From the sequence record PV654397.1: DNA of 64,000 nucleotides; one strand, given 5' to 3'. How positions within the stretch are numbered: the stretch's first letter is position 1; each line of letters opens with the position of its first letter. The position numbers and the translations under genes are program-made. A model generated the notes under the pieces. That model searched no databases. It saw only the letters and a program-made list of their open reading frames with translations, and was not told the origin of the DNA. Below are positions 833 through 20,305 of this stretch, piece after piece. Source of the stretch: Escherichia phage WPEC5.

Positions 833-920
833 GATAAAACTCCTTAATTTAGGAGGGAGAACCATTTCCCCCTCTCTATGTAAAACATTATACATGAATC
901 TAAGTACTATGCAAGTACTA
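833..920 (-). promoter_or_regulatory. type-A promoter with leader hairpin (representative)
   Basis: Minus strand: TTGCAT-N16-TATAAT-GTTTTACAT, then hairpin GGGGGAAATGGTTCTCCC, AAGGAG SD, ATG; same architecture before >30 genes in 1-20 kb. Confidence 0.6.
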
Positions 921-1253
921 TTTCATTTTAATACCTGGATTCAGGTAACGGTGAGAGCCGTATTCTGGAGAGGTTTCGGTCCAGTACAGTAAATCGATAG
1001 TCCCTTTAGCGTTAATCTTATCTACCAGCTTATTCATCTTAGCGTATACTACATCAGCATCGATGCGTTTAAAGCCAGTAGCTTTAGTGAAGTAGTAATG
1101 ATTTACTTCGCTATCGTTAAGGATATACCGAGAACCGTCAGCCGTTTGTGCGACAATGAATGAGAATGATACTTTACGATCAAGGCCGTCGCAGTATACA
1201 GATGAATCATTGGTACGGATGAAAGCTTTAACGATATCGATTGAAGTACTCAT
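918..1253 (-). CDS. hypothetical protein (111 aa)
   Basis: ORF; TTGACA-N17-AATAAT promoter and AGGAG SD upstream. Confidence 0.6.
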   Translation of the reverse strand: MSTSIDIVKAFIRTNDSSVYCDGLDRKVSFSFIVAQTADGSRYILNDSEVNHYYFTKATGFKRIDADVVYAKMNKLVDKINAKGTIDLLYWTETSPEYGSHRYLNPGIKMK

Positions 1254-1455
1254 GGTGAATCTCCTAACTTTGTGGGCCGTCGCACCGTTGCCGCCCTACG
1301 AGATACATTATTGCAGTACTGATATACTTTGTCAATACTTTTTTATTAATAGTTTTAGTTCCACCAGCAGATAGTTACTCACCGTTATTAACTATATATT
1401 TTGGATACACCTATGCACCCTGTGGGCTAGTTTTTGTCTATGCGTATATAATAGC

Positions 1456-1490
1456 AAAGGGACTGACCGGAGTCAATCCCTTTTTTTATT
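1456..1490 (-). terminator. rho-independent terminator (module copy 1)
   Basis: Minus-strand hairpin AGGGAUUGAC-UCCG-GUCAGUCCCU, U-rich tail; plus strand would have a C-A mismatch. Confidence 0.55.
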
Positions 1491-1499
1491 CTTTTTTTG

Positions 1500-1700
1500 T
1501 TAGATGATTCTCCAATCATCAACGATCATGGTAAGATACCGAACCAGTGATTCGAGTGATTCGTGTTCTCGATAGTCTGCCGCTCCACCAGCGGTACAAG
1601 TACAGCCGATTAAGCCGTTTTGTAGTTCCTGGATCTTTACGTCGATCTGGTTGGCTTTAGCTTCTTTCAGTACTTCAACCAGGGCGATAGCGATAGACAT
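1500..1700 (-). CDS. hypothetical protein (66 aa)
   Basis: ORF; type-A promoter, leader hairpin GCGGGGGAA..TTCTCCCGC and GGAG SD upstream. Confidence 0.6.
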   Translation of the reverse strand: MSIAIALVEVLKEAKANQIDVKIQELQNGLIGCTCTAGGAADYREHESLESLVRYLTMIVDDWRII

Positions 1701-1790
1701 AATGTTTTACTCCAAACTATTGGCGGGAGAACTATTCCCCCGCTCTATGTAAAACATTATACATTACTGGTTAGTACTGTCAAATAGTTT
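1701..1790 (-). promoter_or_regulatory. type-A promoter with leader hairpin
   Basis: TTGACA-N16-TATAAT-GTTTTACAT, hairpin GCGGGGGAA..TTCTCCCGC, GGAG SD. Confidence 0.6.
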
Positions 1791-2048
1791 TTATGAAATA
1801 TCTTCGATGTAGTCGGCCCATTTCATTTTTTCAGTACTGTCAATGGCTACCGGATTATTTGGATCAAACCATTCACCATCACCGCAATACATACCCACGG
1901 CTACGGTTTTATAGCCATCCTGGGCCGTACACCACGACATTGCACGATAGATATGGCCTTTAACTGGTTGCAGTACTGGTAACGTTTTATGGTCTTCTAC
2001 GTAGGCCATAGCTTGAGGATTTACCCGATATTGTGTGAACTGATCCAT
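1791..2048 (-). CDS. hypothetical protein (85 aa)
   Basis: ORF; TTGACA-N17-TGTAAT promoter and AGGGG SD upstream. Confidence 0.55.
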   Translation of the reverse strand: MDQFTQYRVNPQAMAYVEDHKTLPVLQPVKGHIYRAMSWCTAQDGYKTVAVGMYCGDGEWFDPNNPVAIDSTEKMKWADYIEDIS

Positions 2049-2124
2049 TATGTTTCCCCTTGTAGTTAGTAAAGTTATTACATCAGTACTATCAAGCTAT
2101 GTCAATAGTACTGAAATAAAACTT

Positions 2125-2349
2125 TTAGATTAGATTATTGAGGCCGTCAATGGTAGACTCACTTTCTTCTTTCTCCCATTGTCGGTAGTACTTCCATGCT
2201 TCATGATAGGTGGCGATTAGTTCATCTTTTTGATCCTGGTTACATGCCAGTACTGAATCACGGTGAGCGGTGTTATAGATAGAATCGAATGATTTCTTCT
2301 CTTCTGCCAGGTTAGCTACTTCCCGCATCAGTTCATCAAAGTTAGCCAT
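2125..2349 (-). CDS. hypothetical protein (74 aa)
   Basis: ORF; type-A promoter, palindromic leader hairpin GGGGGAG..CTCCCCC, AAGGAG SD. Confidence 0.6.
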   Translation of the reverse strand: MANFDELMREVANLAEEKKSFDSIYNTAHRDSVLACNQDQKDELIATYHEAWKYYRQWEKEESESTIDGLNNLI

Positions 2350-2416
2350 TTTATTACTCCTTTTAGTGGGGGAGGATATCTCCCCCTATGCAAAACATTA
2401 TACTTTGTTTTAGTTA

Positions 2417-2680
2417 TTATGCAAGTACTTTTTTCATATAAACATTAAATTCTACACCGCCGTAACCTTCCACGATGATATGTTTTGCGTTATCACGTTT
2501 GCACATAGTGAAACCGTTGTTGATATGTTCTGCATTTTCCAGGGCGACATCACCGATAGCGGCACATACGGCACTAATAACAGTATTCCGCAAAGTACTG
2601 GTATCATTGGCGGTCATAGTAGTTTGCAGTACTACGTTGTCGTATACGTGTGCATTGATAGTGATTTCGATAGTGTTCAT
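2417..2680 (-). CDS. hypothetical protein (87 aa)
   Basis: ORF; start trimmed to ATG 2680 downstream of promoter and leader hairpin; AGGAG SD. Confidence 0.6.
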   Translation of the reverse strand: MNTIEITINAHVYDNVVLQTTMTANDTSTLRNTVISAVCAAIGDVALENAEHINNGFTMCKRDNAKHIIVEGYGGVEFNVYMKKVLA

Positions 2681-18199: not shown

Positions 18200-18423
18200 T
18201 TTGTAACCCTCATTCAGTAGTTGATGTAAGTATTATACGCTTTTAAAAACATTTGTCAAACTATTTTATCAGGGGAGTTTTTCGTGTGCCTTACTCCTGG
18301 GCTACTTAACGGGAAGTTACTTATTTCGTTCCCCGTCCTGATGTAAAACATTATACGCCTTTAAACATAGTTTGCAAGTACTTTTTAAAAATAGTTTTCA
18401 GTACTGAATATTAAAAAAAAGTA

Positions 18424-18452
18424 TTGACAGCATTATCAAGTACTGGCATAAT
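18424..18452 (+). promoter_or_regulatory. plus-strand sigma70-like promoter
   Basis: TTGACA-N17-CATAAT preceded by A8 tract; downstream carries the GCACCC..GGGTGC inverted-repeat element. Confidence 0.5.
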
Positions 18453-18626
18453 ATACCCCATGACAACAGCTAACCCACCGGGTGCACAATTGTAACTATA
18501 CTAAACTAATTTTGCTATAGATACACTCCCGCACCCTATGGGCTACGGCTTATCTGCCAATGAATACATTATGCCAGTACTGACAAAATAAGTCAATACC
18601 GGCAATTGTAAAGATTTGTAAACTGC

Positions 18627-18857
18627 TTATACTGCAATCGCGTCCAGGCTGTAATAATAATAAGTGCCGTATTGGTGTACTTTATTACCTTTTATTTCAG
18701 TACTGAATGAATCCGAACGATTTGCATATGATGTTAATTTAAAGTACTTTGATTTGCTGATACGTTGCCATACACCACAGATCCGCTGTAAGTAAGTAGT
18801 TTTATTCGTGGTAGTATCTTTTACGGTTTTAACTTCAGTCATATACATATTAGTCAT
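18627..18857 (-). CDS. hypothetical protein (76 aa)
   Basis: ORF; type-A promoter, hairpin GCGGGAAC..TTCCCGCC, GGAG SD. Confidence 0.55.
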   Translation of the reverse strand: MTNMYMTEVKTVKDTTTNKTTYLQRICGVWQRISKSKYFKLTSYANRSDSFSTEIKGNKVHQYGTYYYYSLDAIAV

Positions 18858-18944
18858 TTTTATTACTCCAGGTTATAGGCGGGAAGTGTTCCCGCTCTCG
18901 ATGTAAAACATTATACGCCATTAAACATAGTTTGCAAGTACTTT

Positions 18945-19211
18945 TTATTCAAGTACTGCAATCTTTTTTGTACGGTACACGGTCACGCGGTTGCCCTTTC
19001 GGTCGAGCTTTATTTCTACCACTCGACGCGATACACTATCGGGACTTTTTAAGGCCGCTAACCAGTACTGTAATGATCTGGCGGTACTACGCTTTACAAT
19101 GGCCCAACGTTTACCACGTTCCGATTGTACGCCCATATCTTTAAACGTTGCCCCGTCCTGGCGTGCGGCGATCCGAGCTTGTTCACGCGTCGCAAAATAC
19201 TTAATATTCAT
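18945..19211 (-). CDS. hypothetical protein (88 aa), paralog of 5259-5654
   Basis: ORF; start trimmed to ATG 19211; shared N- and C-terminal motifs with 5259-5654. Confidence 0.55.
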   Translation of the reverse strand: MNIKYFATREQARIAARQDGATFKDMGVQSERGKRWAIVKRSTARSLQYWLAALKSPDSVSRRVVEIKLDRKGNRVTVYRTKKIAVLE

Positions 19212-19299
19212 GCTGTTGCCCTTATCGTTGGTGTATGAATAAAACACTATTATAAAGTACTATCCCCGTGCAATAGTACTTTAAATAAATTCTATTCTA

Positions 19300-19539
19300 T
19301 TACATTCCAACCATCGCCGCACGGATCGCAGTAGTGCTATATTTGAATCCGTCCGGTGTTTTATCTTGTCCAGTCTGTTCTAAAAATAACATCATATGAC
19401 GGGCCGCATCATTGCGATTAGTGTTGTCGTTAATAAAATCCAGGGCCAACCGATACAATCCCTCATCGTTATTAATCCACAGGCTTACATTCCAATGAGT
19501 TTTGTTTTTGTGACCTAAGAACATTTTTGATTTAGCCAT
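19300..19539 (-). CDS. hypothetical protein (79 aa), paralog of 17258-17497
   Basis: ORF; start trimmed to ATG 19539; type-A promoter, hairpin, AAGAGGA SD. Confidence 0.55.
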   Translation of the reverse strand: MAKSKMFLGHKNKTHWNVSLWINNDEGLYRLALDFINDNTNRNDAARHMMLFLEQTGQDKTPDGFKYSTTAIRAAMVGM

Positions 19540-19632
19540 TTTTTTAATCCTCTTATATAGTGGGGAACTATTCCCCACCTGATGTAAAACATTATACGCT
19601 TTTAAACATAGTTTGCAAGTACTTTATTAAAC

Positions 19633-19995
19633 TTATTTGTAAATTTTGCCACTGTCAGCCCATACCAGGAAACGAGGCATATTATCCCATGCATCTTGTT
19701 TTAAGTTTAAGCCGTGCAATTCCTCAGTTGTTGCCATCCCTGGTACTGGCTTACTACACACCGCGAAATTTTCGCCCATATACTGATAAACCATCGTCAA
19801 ATCATTTGAGATCATTATATGGATCATTGAATCCAGCATCAAAGTAGCGGCGTATTGTTCACGCTTAAGCGGCAACATTGCAATAAGTTCCCGATAAGCT
19901 GCAATGTGAATTTTTACCGTTTCAGCCGGAAGACCTTTCATCTCATCGCGGAAGTTTACCAGGTTAAGCATGATTTTATTGATTTGAGTCGCCAT
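19633..19995 (-). CDS. hypothetical protein (120 aa)
   Basis: ORF; start trimmed to ATG 19995 after type-A promoter and hairpin. Confidence 0.55.
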   Translation of the reverse strand: MATQINKIMLNLVNFRDEMKGLPAETVKIHIAAYRELIAMLPLKREQYAATLMLDSMIHIMISNDLTMVYQYMGENFAVCSKPVPGMATTEELHGLNLKQDAWDNMPRFLVWADSGKIYK

Positions 19996-20305
19996 CGTTT
20001 TAATCTCTCTTAATGTGTAGCGGGAAGTGTTCCCGCTCTCGATGTAAAACATTATACGCTTTTATCAGTACGGTGCAAGTACTTTCTACAAATACTTTTA
20101 AAATAGTTTTCTTTCTATATAGGAGTACTATTATTCAGTACTGAATCAATCCACCAAATCATCCCTATACCCCGTAAAACGGCCTCAGACGCATTCTAAC
20201 GCATTAATACACCTAAGCTATACATTTGCACCACTCCCAACAATCCAGGGCGTTACGGGCCGTTTAAACGCGTTAAATTATTTTCAATTATTTTGTTTTT
20301 AGGTA

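Follow-up and report, generated by a model that had tools for sequence, protein, structure and literature searches.

The 64,000-nt stretch of Escherichia phage WPEC5 (sequence record PV654397.1) analyzed here, referred to below as the window, carries in its first 20 kb a series of small genes, many of which are preceded by a strong promoter and a short hairpin in the leader of the predicted transcript. These leader hairpins, which keep their pairing while their sequences vary, are the subject of this report. Megablast placed the window among the Asteriusvirus, the jumbo E. coli myoviruses resembling PBECO4 and 121Q (also G17 and vB_Ec-M-J), with an identity of 93-98% to these relatives across the greater part of the first 20 kb. 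The corresponding stretch of vB_Ec-M-J sits within an annotated 21.5-kb direct terminal repeat, which maps by coordinates to about 230-21750 of the window. On this mapping, the gene-free segment at 20100-21900 should contain the physical genome end. This segment has divergent promoters and many short repeats, and the left end of the terminal repeat is expected near 21750 by comparison with vB_Ec-M-J. In the hairpin-bearing region every gene lies on the minus strand and is directed inward from the genome end. A rough gene call gave about 55 genes of 47-200 amino acids, nearly all of which are hypothetical in the records of the relatives. We infer that the hairpin-bearing genes are early genes, given that their promoters follow the sigma-70 consensus and that they lie in the terminal repeat.

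The repeated unit runs in the order -35 element, spacer, TATAAT, conserved box, hairpin, A-rich stretch with the Shine-Dalgarno (SD) sequence, and ATG, confirming the layout given in a preliminary description of this DNA (-35, 16-17 nt, TATAAT, hairpin, SD). The region contains 25 canonical promoter-hairpin cassettes, spanning 853-20078, and one more copy lies at 54444-54464.

853..874, minus strand: leader hairpin GAGGGGGAA-atgg-TTCTCCCTC; -35 at 914-909, -10 at 892-887
1723..1743, minus strand: leader hairpin GCGGGGGAA-tag-TTCTCCCGC; -10 at 1761-1756
2368..2386, minus strand: leader hairpin GGGGGAG-atatc-CTCCCCC; -10 at 2402-2397
2699..2720, minus strand: leader hairpin GAGGGGGAA-atgg-TTTCCCCTC; -10 at 2738-2733; another cassette on the same gene in CRJP21
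3251..3269, minus strand: leader hairpin GGGGAGAA-tag-TTCTCCCC; -10 at 3287-3282
3554..3572, minus strand: leader hairpin AGGGGGAA-cgg-TTCTCCCT; -10 at 3591-3586
6097..6115, minus strand: leader hairpin GAGGGGAA-tgg-TTCCCCTC; -10 at 6135-6130
6367..6386, minus strand: leader hairpin GAGGGGAA-acgg-TTCCCCTC; -10 at 6406-6401
7374..7390, minus strand: leader hairpin AGGGGAA-tag-TTCCCCT, with a CGG/CCG extension and a bulged A; -10 at 7409-7404
7669..7688, minus strand: leader hairpin GGGGAGAA-atga-TTCTCCCC; -10 at 7706-7701
8037..8056, minus strand: leader hairpin GGGGAGAA-atga-TTCTCCCC; -10 at 8074-8069
8313..8331, minus strand: leader hairpin AGGGGAA-acatc-TTCCCCT; -10 TATAGT at 8347-8342; a GGGGAGAA-tag cassette on the same gene in vB_Ec-M-J
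10414..10434, minus strand: leader hairpin GGGGAGAA-aatga-TTCTCCCC; -10 at 10452-10447; GGGAAGT-aacagt-ACTTCCC instead in UE-S1
10850..10868, minus strand: leader hairpin AGGGGAAA-cgg-TTTCCCCT; -10 at 10887-10882
11442..11461, minus strand: leader hairpin GGGGAGAA-atga-TTCTCCCC; -10 at 11479-11474
11783..11802, minus strand: leader hairpin AAGGGGAA-aacg-TTCCCCTT; -10 at 11818-11813
12010..12029, minus strand: leader hairpin GGGGAGAA-atga-TTCTCCCC; -10 at 12047-12042
13523..13542, minus strand: leader hairpin GGGGAGAA-atgg-TTCTCCCC; -10 at 13560-13555
15603..15621, minus strand: leader hairpin AGGGGGAG-cgg-TTCCCCCT; -10 at 15640-15635; AGGGGAAA/TTTCCCCT in the CRJP21 orthologue
15924..15943, minus strand: leader hairpin TAGGGGGA-gcgg-TTCCCCTG; -10 at 15957-15952, the stem only 8 nt past it
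16389..16408, minus strand: leader hairpin AGGGAGAA-atgg-TTCTCCCT; -10 at 16426-16421
17515..17535, minus strand: leader hairpin GGCGGGGAG-tgg-TTCCCCGCT; -10 at 17553-17548
18879..18895, minus strand: leader hairpin GCGGGAA-cac-TTCCCGC; -10 at 18915-18910
19559..19579, minus strand: leader hairpin GGTGGGGAA-tag-TTCCCCACT; -10 at 19596-19591
20019..20037, minus strand: leader hairpin AGCGGGAA-cac-TTCCCGCT; -10 at 20056-20051; the cassette closest to the genome end
54444..54464, minus strand: hairpin GGGGATGA-acttc-TCATCCCC behind TTGACA-16-TATAAT, -10 at 54479-54474; the sole copy beyond the terminal-repeat region

The four example stems quoted in the preliminary description were located at 2368-2386, 1723-1743, 10850-10868 and 18879-18895, whereas its figure of more than 30 leaders comes down to 25 in 833-20052 plus the copy at 54444-54464. 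Nor do most genes of the region carry the hairpin, as had been stated: it stands before about 25 of the about 55, or roughly 45%.

The -35 elements of the cassettes are TTGCAA, TTGCAT, TTGCAC, TTGACA or, once, TTGATA, the spacer is 16 nt, and the -10 element is TATAAT; the single exception to the last two is the cassette at 8342, with TATAGT and a 17-nt spacer. Each of the 25 promoters agrees with the sigma-70 consensus in 10-12 of its 12 positions. A conserved 9-nt box, GTTTTACAT or AGTTTACAT, follows the -10 element. The hairpin itself has a stem of 7-9 bp, rich in G/A on the 5' arm and in C/T on the 3' arm, and a loop of 3-5 nt. Its stem starts 8-14 nt past TATAAT (mean 12.1, sd 1.3), which is from 1 nt inside the box to 5 nt beyond it and not 4-8 nt downstream as previously described. 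The SD sequence lies 4-9 nt and the ATG 14-23 nt (mean 19.2) past the stem.

The placement of the hairpins is not a product of chance. The region has 36 hairpins with at least 7 bp and at least four G-C pairs, and 26 of them lie 8-14 nt behind TAnA[AG]T, a pattern-based number to be set beside the curated canonical count of 25. In 100 dinucleotide shuffles of the region, we obtained a mean of 3.3 such hairpins, with 0.08 behind such a -10 element (maximum 1), which excludes a chance origin of the placement. In the remaining 43 kb of the window outside the terminal repeat, the covariance model described below found one copy only. The hairpin is coupled to one class of promoter: of the 30 promoters that combine the GTTTTACAT box with a -35 element, 24 (about 80%) have it. 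Longer structured leaders follow another three promoters of this class, whose -10 elements end at 6857, 14922 and 18350. Promoters of a second class (TTGACA-17-TGnCATAAT) are without the hairpin, as are the strong TTGACA-16-TATAAT promoters at 6768, 8787, 9900 and 18259.

Among the 24 copies with the box, we found 17 stem sequences and 11 loop sequences. A covariance model built from nine copies of the same geometry retrieved all 26 copies of the window; a plain MAFFT alignment of the 26 leaders misregistered the stems, was unfit for pair counts and was superseded by covariance-model alignments. In the window alone (30 distinct rows), 98.9% of the cells were paired compared with 88.9% in shuffles, and six of the eight pairs varied on both sides. 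The model was rebuilt after related phages had been added, which gave 78 distinct leaders from eight sources. Here, 98.4% of the cells were paired (84.8% in shuffles), seven of the eight pairs had changes on both sides in a total of 84 cells, and the covariation score was 0.43 as against 0.20 in shuffles; not one of 500 shuffles matched the observed value on any measure. The claim that pairing is kept by compensatory change thus stood up to the count.

Covariance-model alignments favor the modelled structure, and because ours were fitted to it we added shuffle and slide controls, a comparison of G·U with A·C and an orthologue comparison. When the 3' partner was shifted by 1-3 columns, pairing fell to 53-85%. 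The leader of gene 15284-15583 has the stem AGGGGGAG/TTCCCCCT here and AGGGGAAA/TTTCCCCT in CRJP21, with an identical coding start, and the difference is a compensatory change. At paired positions, G·U occurred 35 times and A·C eight times; therefore it is the sense strand, and hence the transcript, that folds, and a symmetric DNA site is ruled out. A DNA operator for a dimeric repressor and a cruciform were dismissed on the same grounds, as the half-sites covary and G·T is tolerated on the sense strand only. Structure, not sequence, is under selection in the leader hairpins.

The minimum-energy fold of every leader was the hairpin alone, with the SD sequence and the AUG unpaired (mean z = -3.8), and whole-leader energies ranged from -10.6 to -16.4 kcal/mol. 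A switch that sequesters the SD sequence was accordingly dismissed, since the SD sequence is free in every minimum-energy fold; a weak alternative CUCC/GGAG pairing exists in some copies only, for example at 855-840. An upstream mini-ORF (open reading frame) was also dropped, with an AUG in just eight of 24 loops (the ATGA and ATGG loops). A terminator scan of the coding strand of the region returned eight sites (1483, 3743, 5236, 7021, 11038, 14294, 15025 and 16144) and flagged none of the leader hairpins. A T-run follows none of the 25, so they are not intrinsic terminators. Promoter-less stems at 5218 and 16122 do carry a T-run. When window 1-22500 was scanned against Rfam up to E = 1, no match was found. 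Two promoter-less stems of the region, one of each kind, can be set beside the leader hairpins:

5218..5236, minus strand: promoter-less GGCGGGA-tcagt-TCCCGCC followed by TTTTTT; terminator-like, in contrast to the leader hairpins
17218..17238, minus strand: promoter-less intercistronic GGCGGGtAA-tag-TTCCCGCC followed by TTTAC and an SD sequence, directly before gene 16940-17200

The second of these has a counterpart near 15930 in a Justusliebigvirus (L006 of our comparison set), likewise intercistronic, without a promoter and just before an SD sequence. Because such copies exist, the hairpin is not tied to primary 5' ends only. It also behaves as a discrete 20-nt module: apart from the hairpin, the leaders of the second promoter class resemble those of the first. 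They read ACATCAA|CTACTGA..., whereas the hairpin leaders read ACATCAA[hairpin]ACTAC....

The same architecture extends to other phages. BLAST with one cassette matched 62 phage records and gave 11-36 copies per Asteriusvirus genome, the upper values coming from records with both terminal repeats. Like architecture, often with different stems, was found in the early regions of four other phages: the Vequintavirinae phage A5-4 (GGCGGCA/TGCCGCC, GGGGCG/CGCCCC and GCCGCA/TGCGGC), the Justusliebigvirus VEcB (GGCGGGAAA/TTTCCCGCC and GGCGGTGG/CCCACCGCC), a Phapecoctavirus, and the Klebsiella jumbo phage fENko-Kae01, in its terminal repeat (GGGGGAA-acatc-TTCCCCC). The cassette architecture is thus common to Asteriusvirus, Vequintavirinae, Stephanstirmvirinae and one Klebsiella jumbo phage. 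In fENko-Kae01, the copy at 9407-9470 has a broken stem, GGGAAAA-acaac-TTCCCCC, with two A·C mismatches, while its other copies are intact; the broken copy could serve as a natural loss-of-structure control.

Among close relatives, whole cassettes are swapped ahead of identical genes (window 2699, 8313, 10414 and 17515), and short gene segments are 75-97% identical between the window and the other phage groups. Window 17256-17560 and other short segments, together with their promoter-hairpin cassettes, are shared with phages of about 140-150 kb (L002/L003, L006 and L007), namely Vequintavirinae, Phapecoctavirus, Justusliebigvirus and records labelled Campylobacter phage. The shared segments therefore indicate a recent exchange of early ORFans between coliphage lineages. 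We propose that promoter, hairpin and SD sequence together make up a portable cassette for expression, about 75 bp long, which recombination carries from gene to gene and from phage to phage.

Of the published concepts, the nearest is the promoter-early stem-loop (PeSL) cassette, described from RB49, phi1 and further T4-like phages (Arbiol et al. 2010, PMC2839356; Comeau et al. 2014, PMC4122927), and the leader hairpins described here are apparently an undescribed variant of it. Both consist of a sigma-70-type early promoter, a stable stem-loop of a G-tract and a C-tract, and an SD sequence; both are repeated in the spacers between small ORFans of a plastic early region; and gene swapping by recombination, to which PeSLs have been linked, would be consistent here with the different cassettes ahead of identical coding starts and with the cassettes common to several phage groups. 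The anatomy differs. The RB49 stem-loop, GGGGATCnnnnGATCCCC, occupies the stretch between the -35 and -10 elements or overlaps the -10 element, the commonest PeSL arrangement; it thus stays out of its own transcript and is interpreted as a terminator, whereas the present stem lies 8-14 nt past the -10 element, in the leader RNA, with no T-run. The PeSL literature does list a minor subclass with the stem-loop downstream of -10. The host phage lineages differ, and there is no detectable sequence homology: RB49 and phi1 were absent among the matches listed, the best 60 of the 62 records, and homology to the RB49 PeSLs was not supported by the one-cassette BLAST or by direct reading of the RB49 elements. 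No leader hairpin is mentioned beside the promoters and terminators that the genome descriptions of rV5, RaK2, PA5oct and CBB list, and the literature searched on Asteriusvirus and PBECO4/121Q gave promoter lists with no description of one.

The window also holds a separate family with the classic PeSL anatomy, AAAGGGATTGACtccgGTCAGTCCCTTT-GCTATTAT, in which the stem holds the -35 element. Its members lie on the minus strand at 1456-1483, 3716-3743, 6994-7021, 11011-11038, 48244-48271, 50037-50068, 51913-51938, 52634-52663, 56930-56959, 57614-57639, 59197-59218, 59975-60000 and 63570-63593. The stem has 9-14 bp, AAAGGG(A/T)TTGAC-tYcg-GTC(A/G)G(T/C)CCTTTT, with the -35 element TTGACT in its 5' arm, and is mostly followed by a T-run and then a -10 element (GCTATAAT or GCTATTAT), a composite of terminator and promoter.

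What the leader hairpins do has to be judged from their anatomy and from known systems. We tentatively favor, at somewhat less than even odds, a cis-acting element for mRNA stability and insulation within the portable cassette; among a stabilizer, a processing site and a regulator site, the stabilizer fits the anatomy best. Early mRNAs would be made by the host sigma-70 RNA polymerase at the terminal-repeat end and, by E. coli start-site rules, would begin at the A of the conserved CAT, 8 nt past TATAAT. The stem would then begin at about +4 to +8, and the hairpin would be the first structured element of the message, slowing 5'-end-dependent decay by RppH and RNase E of what lies downstream. 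In RNA reading through from the upstream promoter, it could block 3' exonucleases and, once the AU-rich promoter sequence is cleaved, give the message a defined and protected 5' end. With the G-rich and C-rich arms locked together, the ribosome site would stay single-stranded whatever gene follows, and the hairpin would mark the cistron boundary. We favor stability and insulation because the structure is selected, there is no terminator tail, the SD sequence is free, promoter-less intercistronic copies exist and the design is like that of known 5' stabilizers.

Among the known 5' stabilizers are the stem-loops of the E. coli mRNAs ompA and papA (primary papers listed in PMC3997798). The likeness lies in a short stable hairpin near the 5' end of the leader, in structure counting over sequence, and in the accessible ribosome site that follows. 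For stabilizers of the ompA type, the stem must come within about 2-4 nt of the 5' terminus; the present leaders are predicted to leave 3-7 nt unpaired from the presumed start, and a family of 25 copies stands in place of single genes. The T7 gene 10 (phi10) leader, used in pET vectors, is reported to raise mRNA stability. Its sequence, when folded, gave GGGAGACC...GGUUUCCC with 8 bp, and shares with the present leaders a purine-rich 5' arm, a pyrimidine-rich 3' arm, and then an AU-rich open stretch with a strong SD sequence. The T7 hairpin starts from +1 behind a T7 RNA polymerase promoter, so that the likeness is one of design and not of homology. Intercistronic stabilizer hairpins and barriers of the repetitive extragenic palindromic (REP) type can block 3' exonucleases; they, too, are GC-rich, lack a U-tract and lie between cistrons, as do the promoter-less copies here, but REP elements have a conserved sequence of their own and belong to host chromosomes, and most of the present copies are promoter-coupled. 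The lambda nut site with boxB is likewise a short hairpin in a phage early leader RNA. BoxB, however, has a conserved purine-rich pentaloop bound by N, with one site per operon, whereas here the loops have 3-5 nt in 11 variants, each hairpin serves one gene, and there are few terminators to override.

Several points weigh against a stabilizing role. If transcription starts at the A of CAT, 3-7 nt (mostly 5) are left unpaired at the predicted 5' end; Emory et al. are said to have concluded in 1992 that protection requires a stem within about 2-4 nt of the end. The hairpin is absent from about half of the neighboring early genes, and transcript maps for this phage group were not found in the literature searched. 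The constraint on the arms (94% purine in the 5' arm, 95% pyrimidine in the 3' arm) and on the apex, often AAYRG, exceeds what pure structure needs. Descent through G·U intermediates could explain it: the double changes are mostly from G-C to A-U, and such descent can account for the polarity of the arms, yet it leaves room for a sequence preference. Finally, an RB49 G4/C4 stem-loop without an obvious U-tract cut downstream lacZ expression like a strong terminator (PMC2839356).

A sequence preference would bear on the alternative that fares best, namely that the hairpin is recognized by a factor acting in trans, be it an early or middle phage protein, a host RNA-binding protein or an endoribonuclease, which would act on all transcripts of the terminal repeat at once. 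Such a factor might, for example, shut off or process early mRNAs at a phase switch, by a logic analogous to that of T4 RegA and RegB. A single type of element on at least 25 early leaders would suit it, as would the constraint beyond pairing in the arms and at the stem top, which is always A-U, the GGAG of many 5' arms, and an apex of AAUAG, AAUGG or AACGG that recurs across phage groups. We nevertheless consider this unlikely. The 24 copies have loops of 3-5 nt in 11 variants, the stems span GGGGAGAA to GGCGGTGG with no invariant motif, descent steps through G-C, G·U and A-U can explain the arm polarity, and no candidate protein was identified; since the phage groups differ in their gene sets, a phage-encoded partner would have to be shared as well. 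Somewhat harder still to credit is the broader idea that the hairpin is an address label which several unrelated groups of large coliphages share on their early transcripts, read by a common host or phage factor that times decay, processing or translation of every early mRNA from the terminal repeat. Were it true, the unit of promoter, hairpin and SD sequence would be a horizontally mobile cassette carrying ORFans between phages of the same host.

Three further explanations seem improbable to us. The hairpin might damp transcription arriving from the upstream cassette, as a PeSL-type attenuator, so that each gene depends mainly on its own promoter. The cassettes do stand head to tail, the 20 kb have just eight terminator-like sites on their coding strand, and the published G-tract/C-tract stem-loops strongly lowered downstream reporter expression (PMC2839356). 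A hairpin downstream of its own promoter, however, would equally stop the transcripts of that promoter after about 30 nt; the anatomy differs from that of RB49, where the stem-loop lies outside its own transcript, and none of the 25 has a T-run although the phage uses T-tailed versions of a like stem elsewhere.

We hold out equally little hope for a hairpin without RNA function, either a passenger in a cassette that serves as DNA homology for recombination and the shuffling of genes, or a small inserted palindromic module that spread. The exchange of cassettes ahead of identical coding sequences at 2699, 8313, 10414 and 17515, the cassettes and short gene segments common to Asteriusvirus, Vequintavirinae and Stephanstirmvirinae, and the resemblance of the hairpin to a 20-nt insertion into an otherwise similar leader all speak for it. 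A passenger would be expected to decay, yet 98% of pairing is kept while seven of eight positions vary; the tolerance for G·U is strand-specific, broken copies such as that at 9407 in fENko-Kae01 are rare, and homology, not a stem, is what recombination requires.

A co-transcriptional role has just as slim a chance. The nascent hairpin, formed once the polymerase is at about +35 to +40, would prevent backtracking or set a short pause near the SD sequence and AUG, and so aid clearance of slow-escaping near-consensus promoters or couple the first ribosome to the polymerase. The tie to a near-consensus promoter class, the fixed distance of 12.1 +/- 1.3 nt from the -10 element and a start codon 14-23 nt past the stem, within reach of a hairpin-stabilized pause, agree with it; the promoter-less intercistronic copies and the equally strong hairpin-less promoters at 6768, 8787, 9900 and 18259 do not.

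The window holds further repeated elements. The longer structured leaders noted above include two copies of a long-form RNA:

6772..6862, minus strand: long-form leader with a promoter of that class; about 75 nt of RNA with a closing stem and two hairpins, then another promoter, no ORF
18264..18355, minus strand: second copy of the long-form structured RNA, behind a promoter of the hairpin-bearing class (class I)

The RNA itself covers 6772-6850 and 18264-18343 on the minus strand, with a variant at 14838-14915. A closing stem AUCAGG/CCUGAU surrounds the two hairpins, the same early promoter class precedes it, and a promoter follows directly with no ORF. The unrelated Vequintavirinae phage A5-4 has a nearly identical copy. 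The RNA has no Rfam match and is a candidate phage small RNA. Short repeats centered on GCACCC(t/g)nnGGGC or CCCACCGGGTGC lie at 1415, 3670, 6953, 9309, 10965 and 18531 on the minus strand and at 16070, 18473, 20360 and 20577 on the plus strand, several of them in the gene-free end region. Each has its own promoter, on either strand, and no ORF, and they may represent a family of small transcripts. In the same gene-free region, a hairpin of the leader type had been reported near 20710-20730. A stem is present there but only loosely alike: on the plus strand (TTGACA at 20643, GATAAT at 20666-20671) it lies 38 nt past the -10 element and needs a bulge, and on the minus strand the stem is perfect but has no recognizable promoter.

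AGTACT is greatly over-represented, with 273 occurrences in the 64 kb, most densely in 1-28000, against a median of 9.5 for 6-bp palindromes and 74 for the runner-up, ATTAAT; CAGTACTG occurs 61 times. AGTACT lies in coding sequence and, very frequently, immediately ahead of the -10 element within promoter spacers (…AGTACTGTATAAT). Hairpins of the form GCCAGTAC-nnn-GTACTGGC around AGTACT lie on the minus strand at 27829, 31438, 32654, 33913, 34727, 35936, 40647 and 43015, each preceded by ...TATATTTAATACAAAAAGAAAA and located between large plus-strand genes. A related stem, AATCCAGTACTA-taa-TAGTACTGGATT, lies at 44898-44924 (minus strand) without the TATATTTAATACAAAAAGAAAA flank. These AGTACT hairpins in 27829-44924 are probably bidirectional terminators.

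If the leader hairpin controls stability or translation, as the stabilizer and insulation reading would have it, it would be an undescribed cis-regulatory RNA motif, absent from Rfam, that governs the first-expressed genes of a jumbo phage group whose members are candidates for phage therapy. Promoter, 5' hairpin and open ribosome site would then make up a natural compact module that serves many unrelated genes, for which the genome supplies 25 natural stem variants and, in the hairpin-less neighbors, built-in controls. The sharing of the cassettes across lineages offers a concrete system in which to study the movement of genes between phages by regulatory cassettes.

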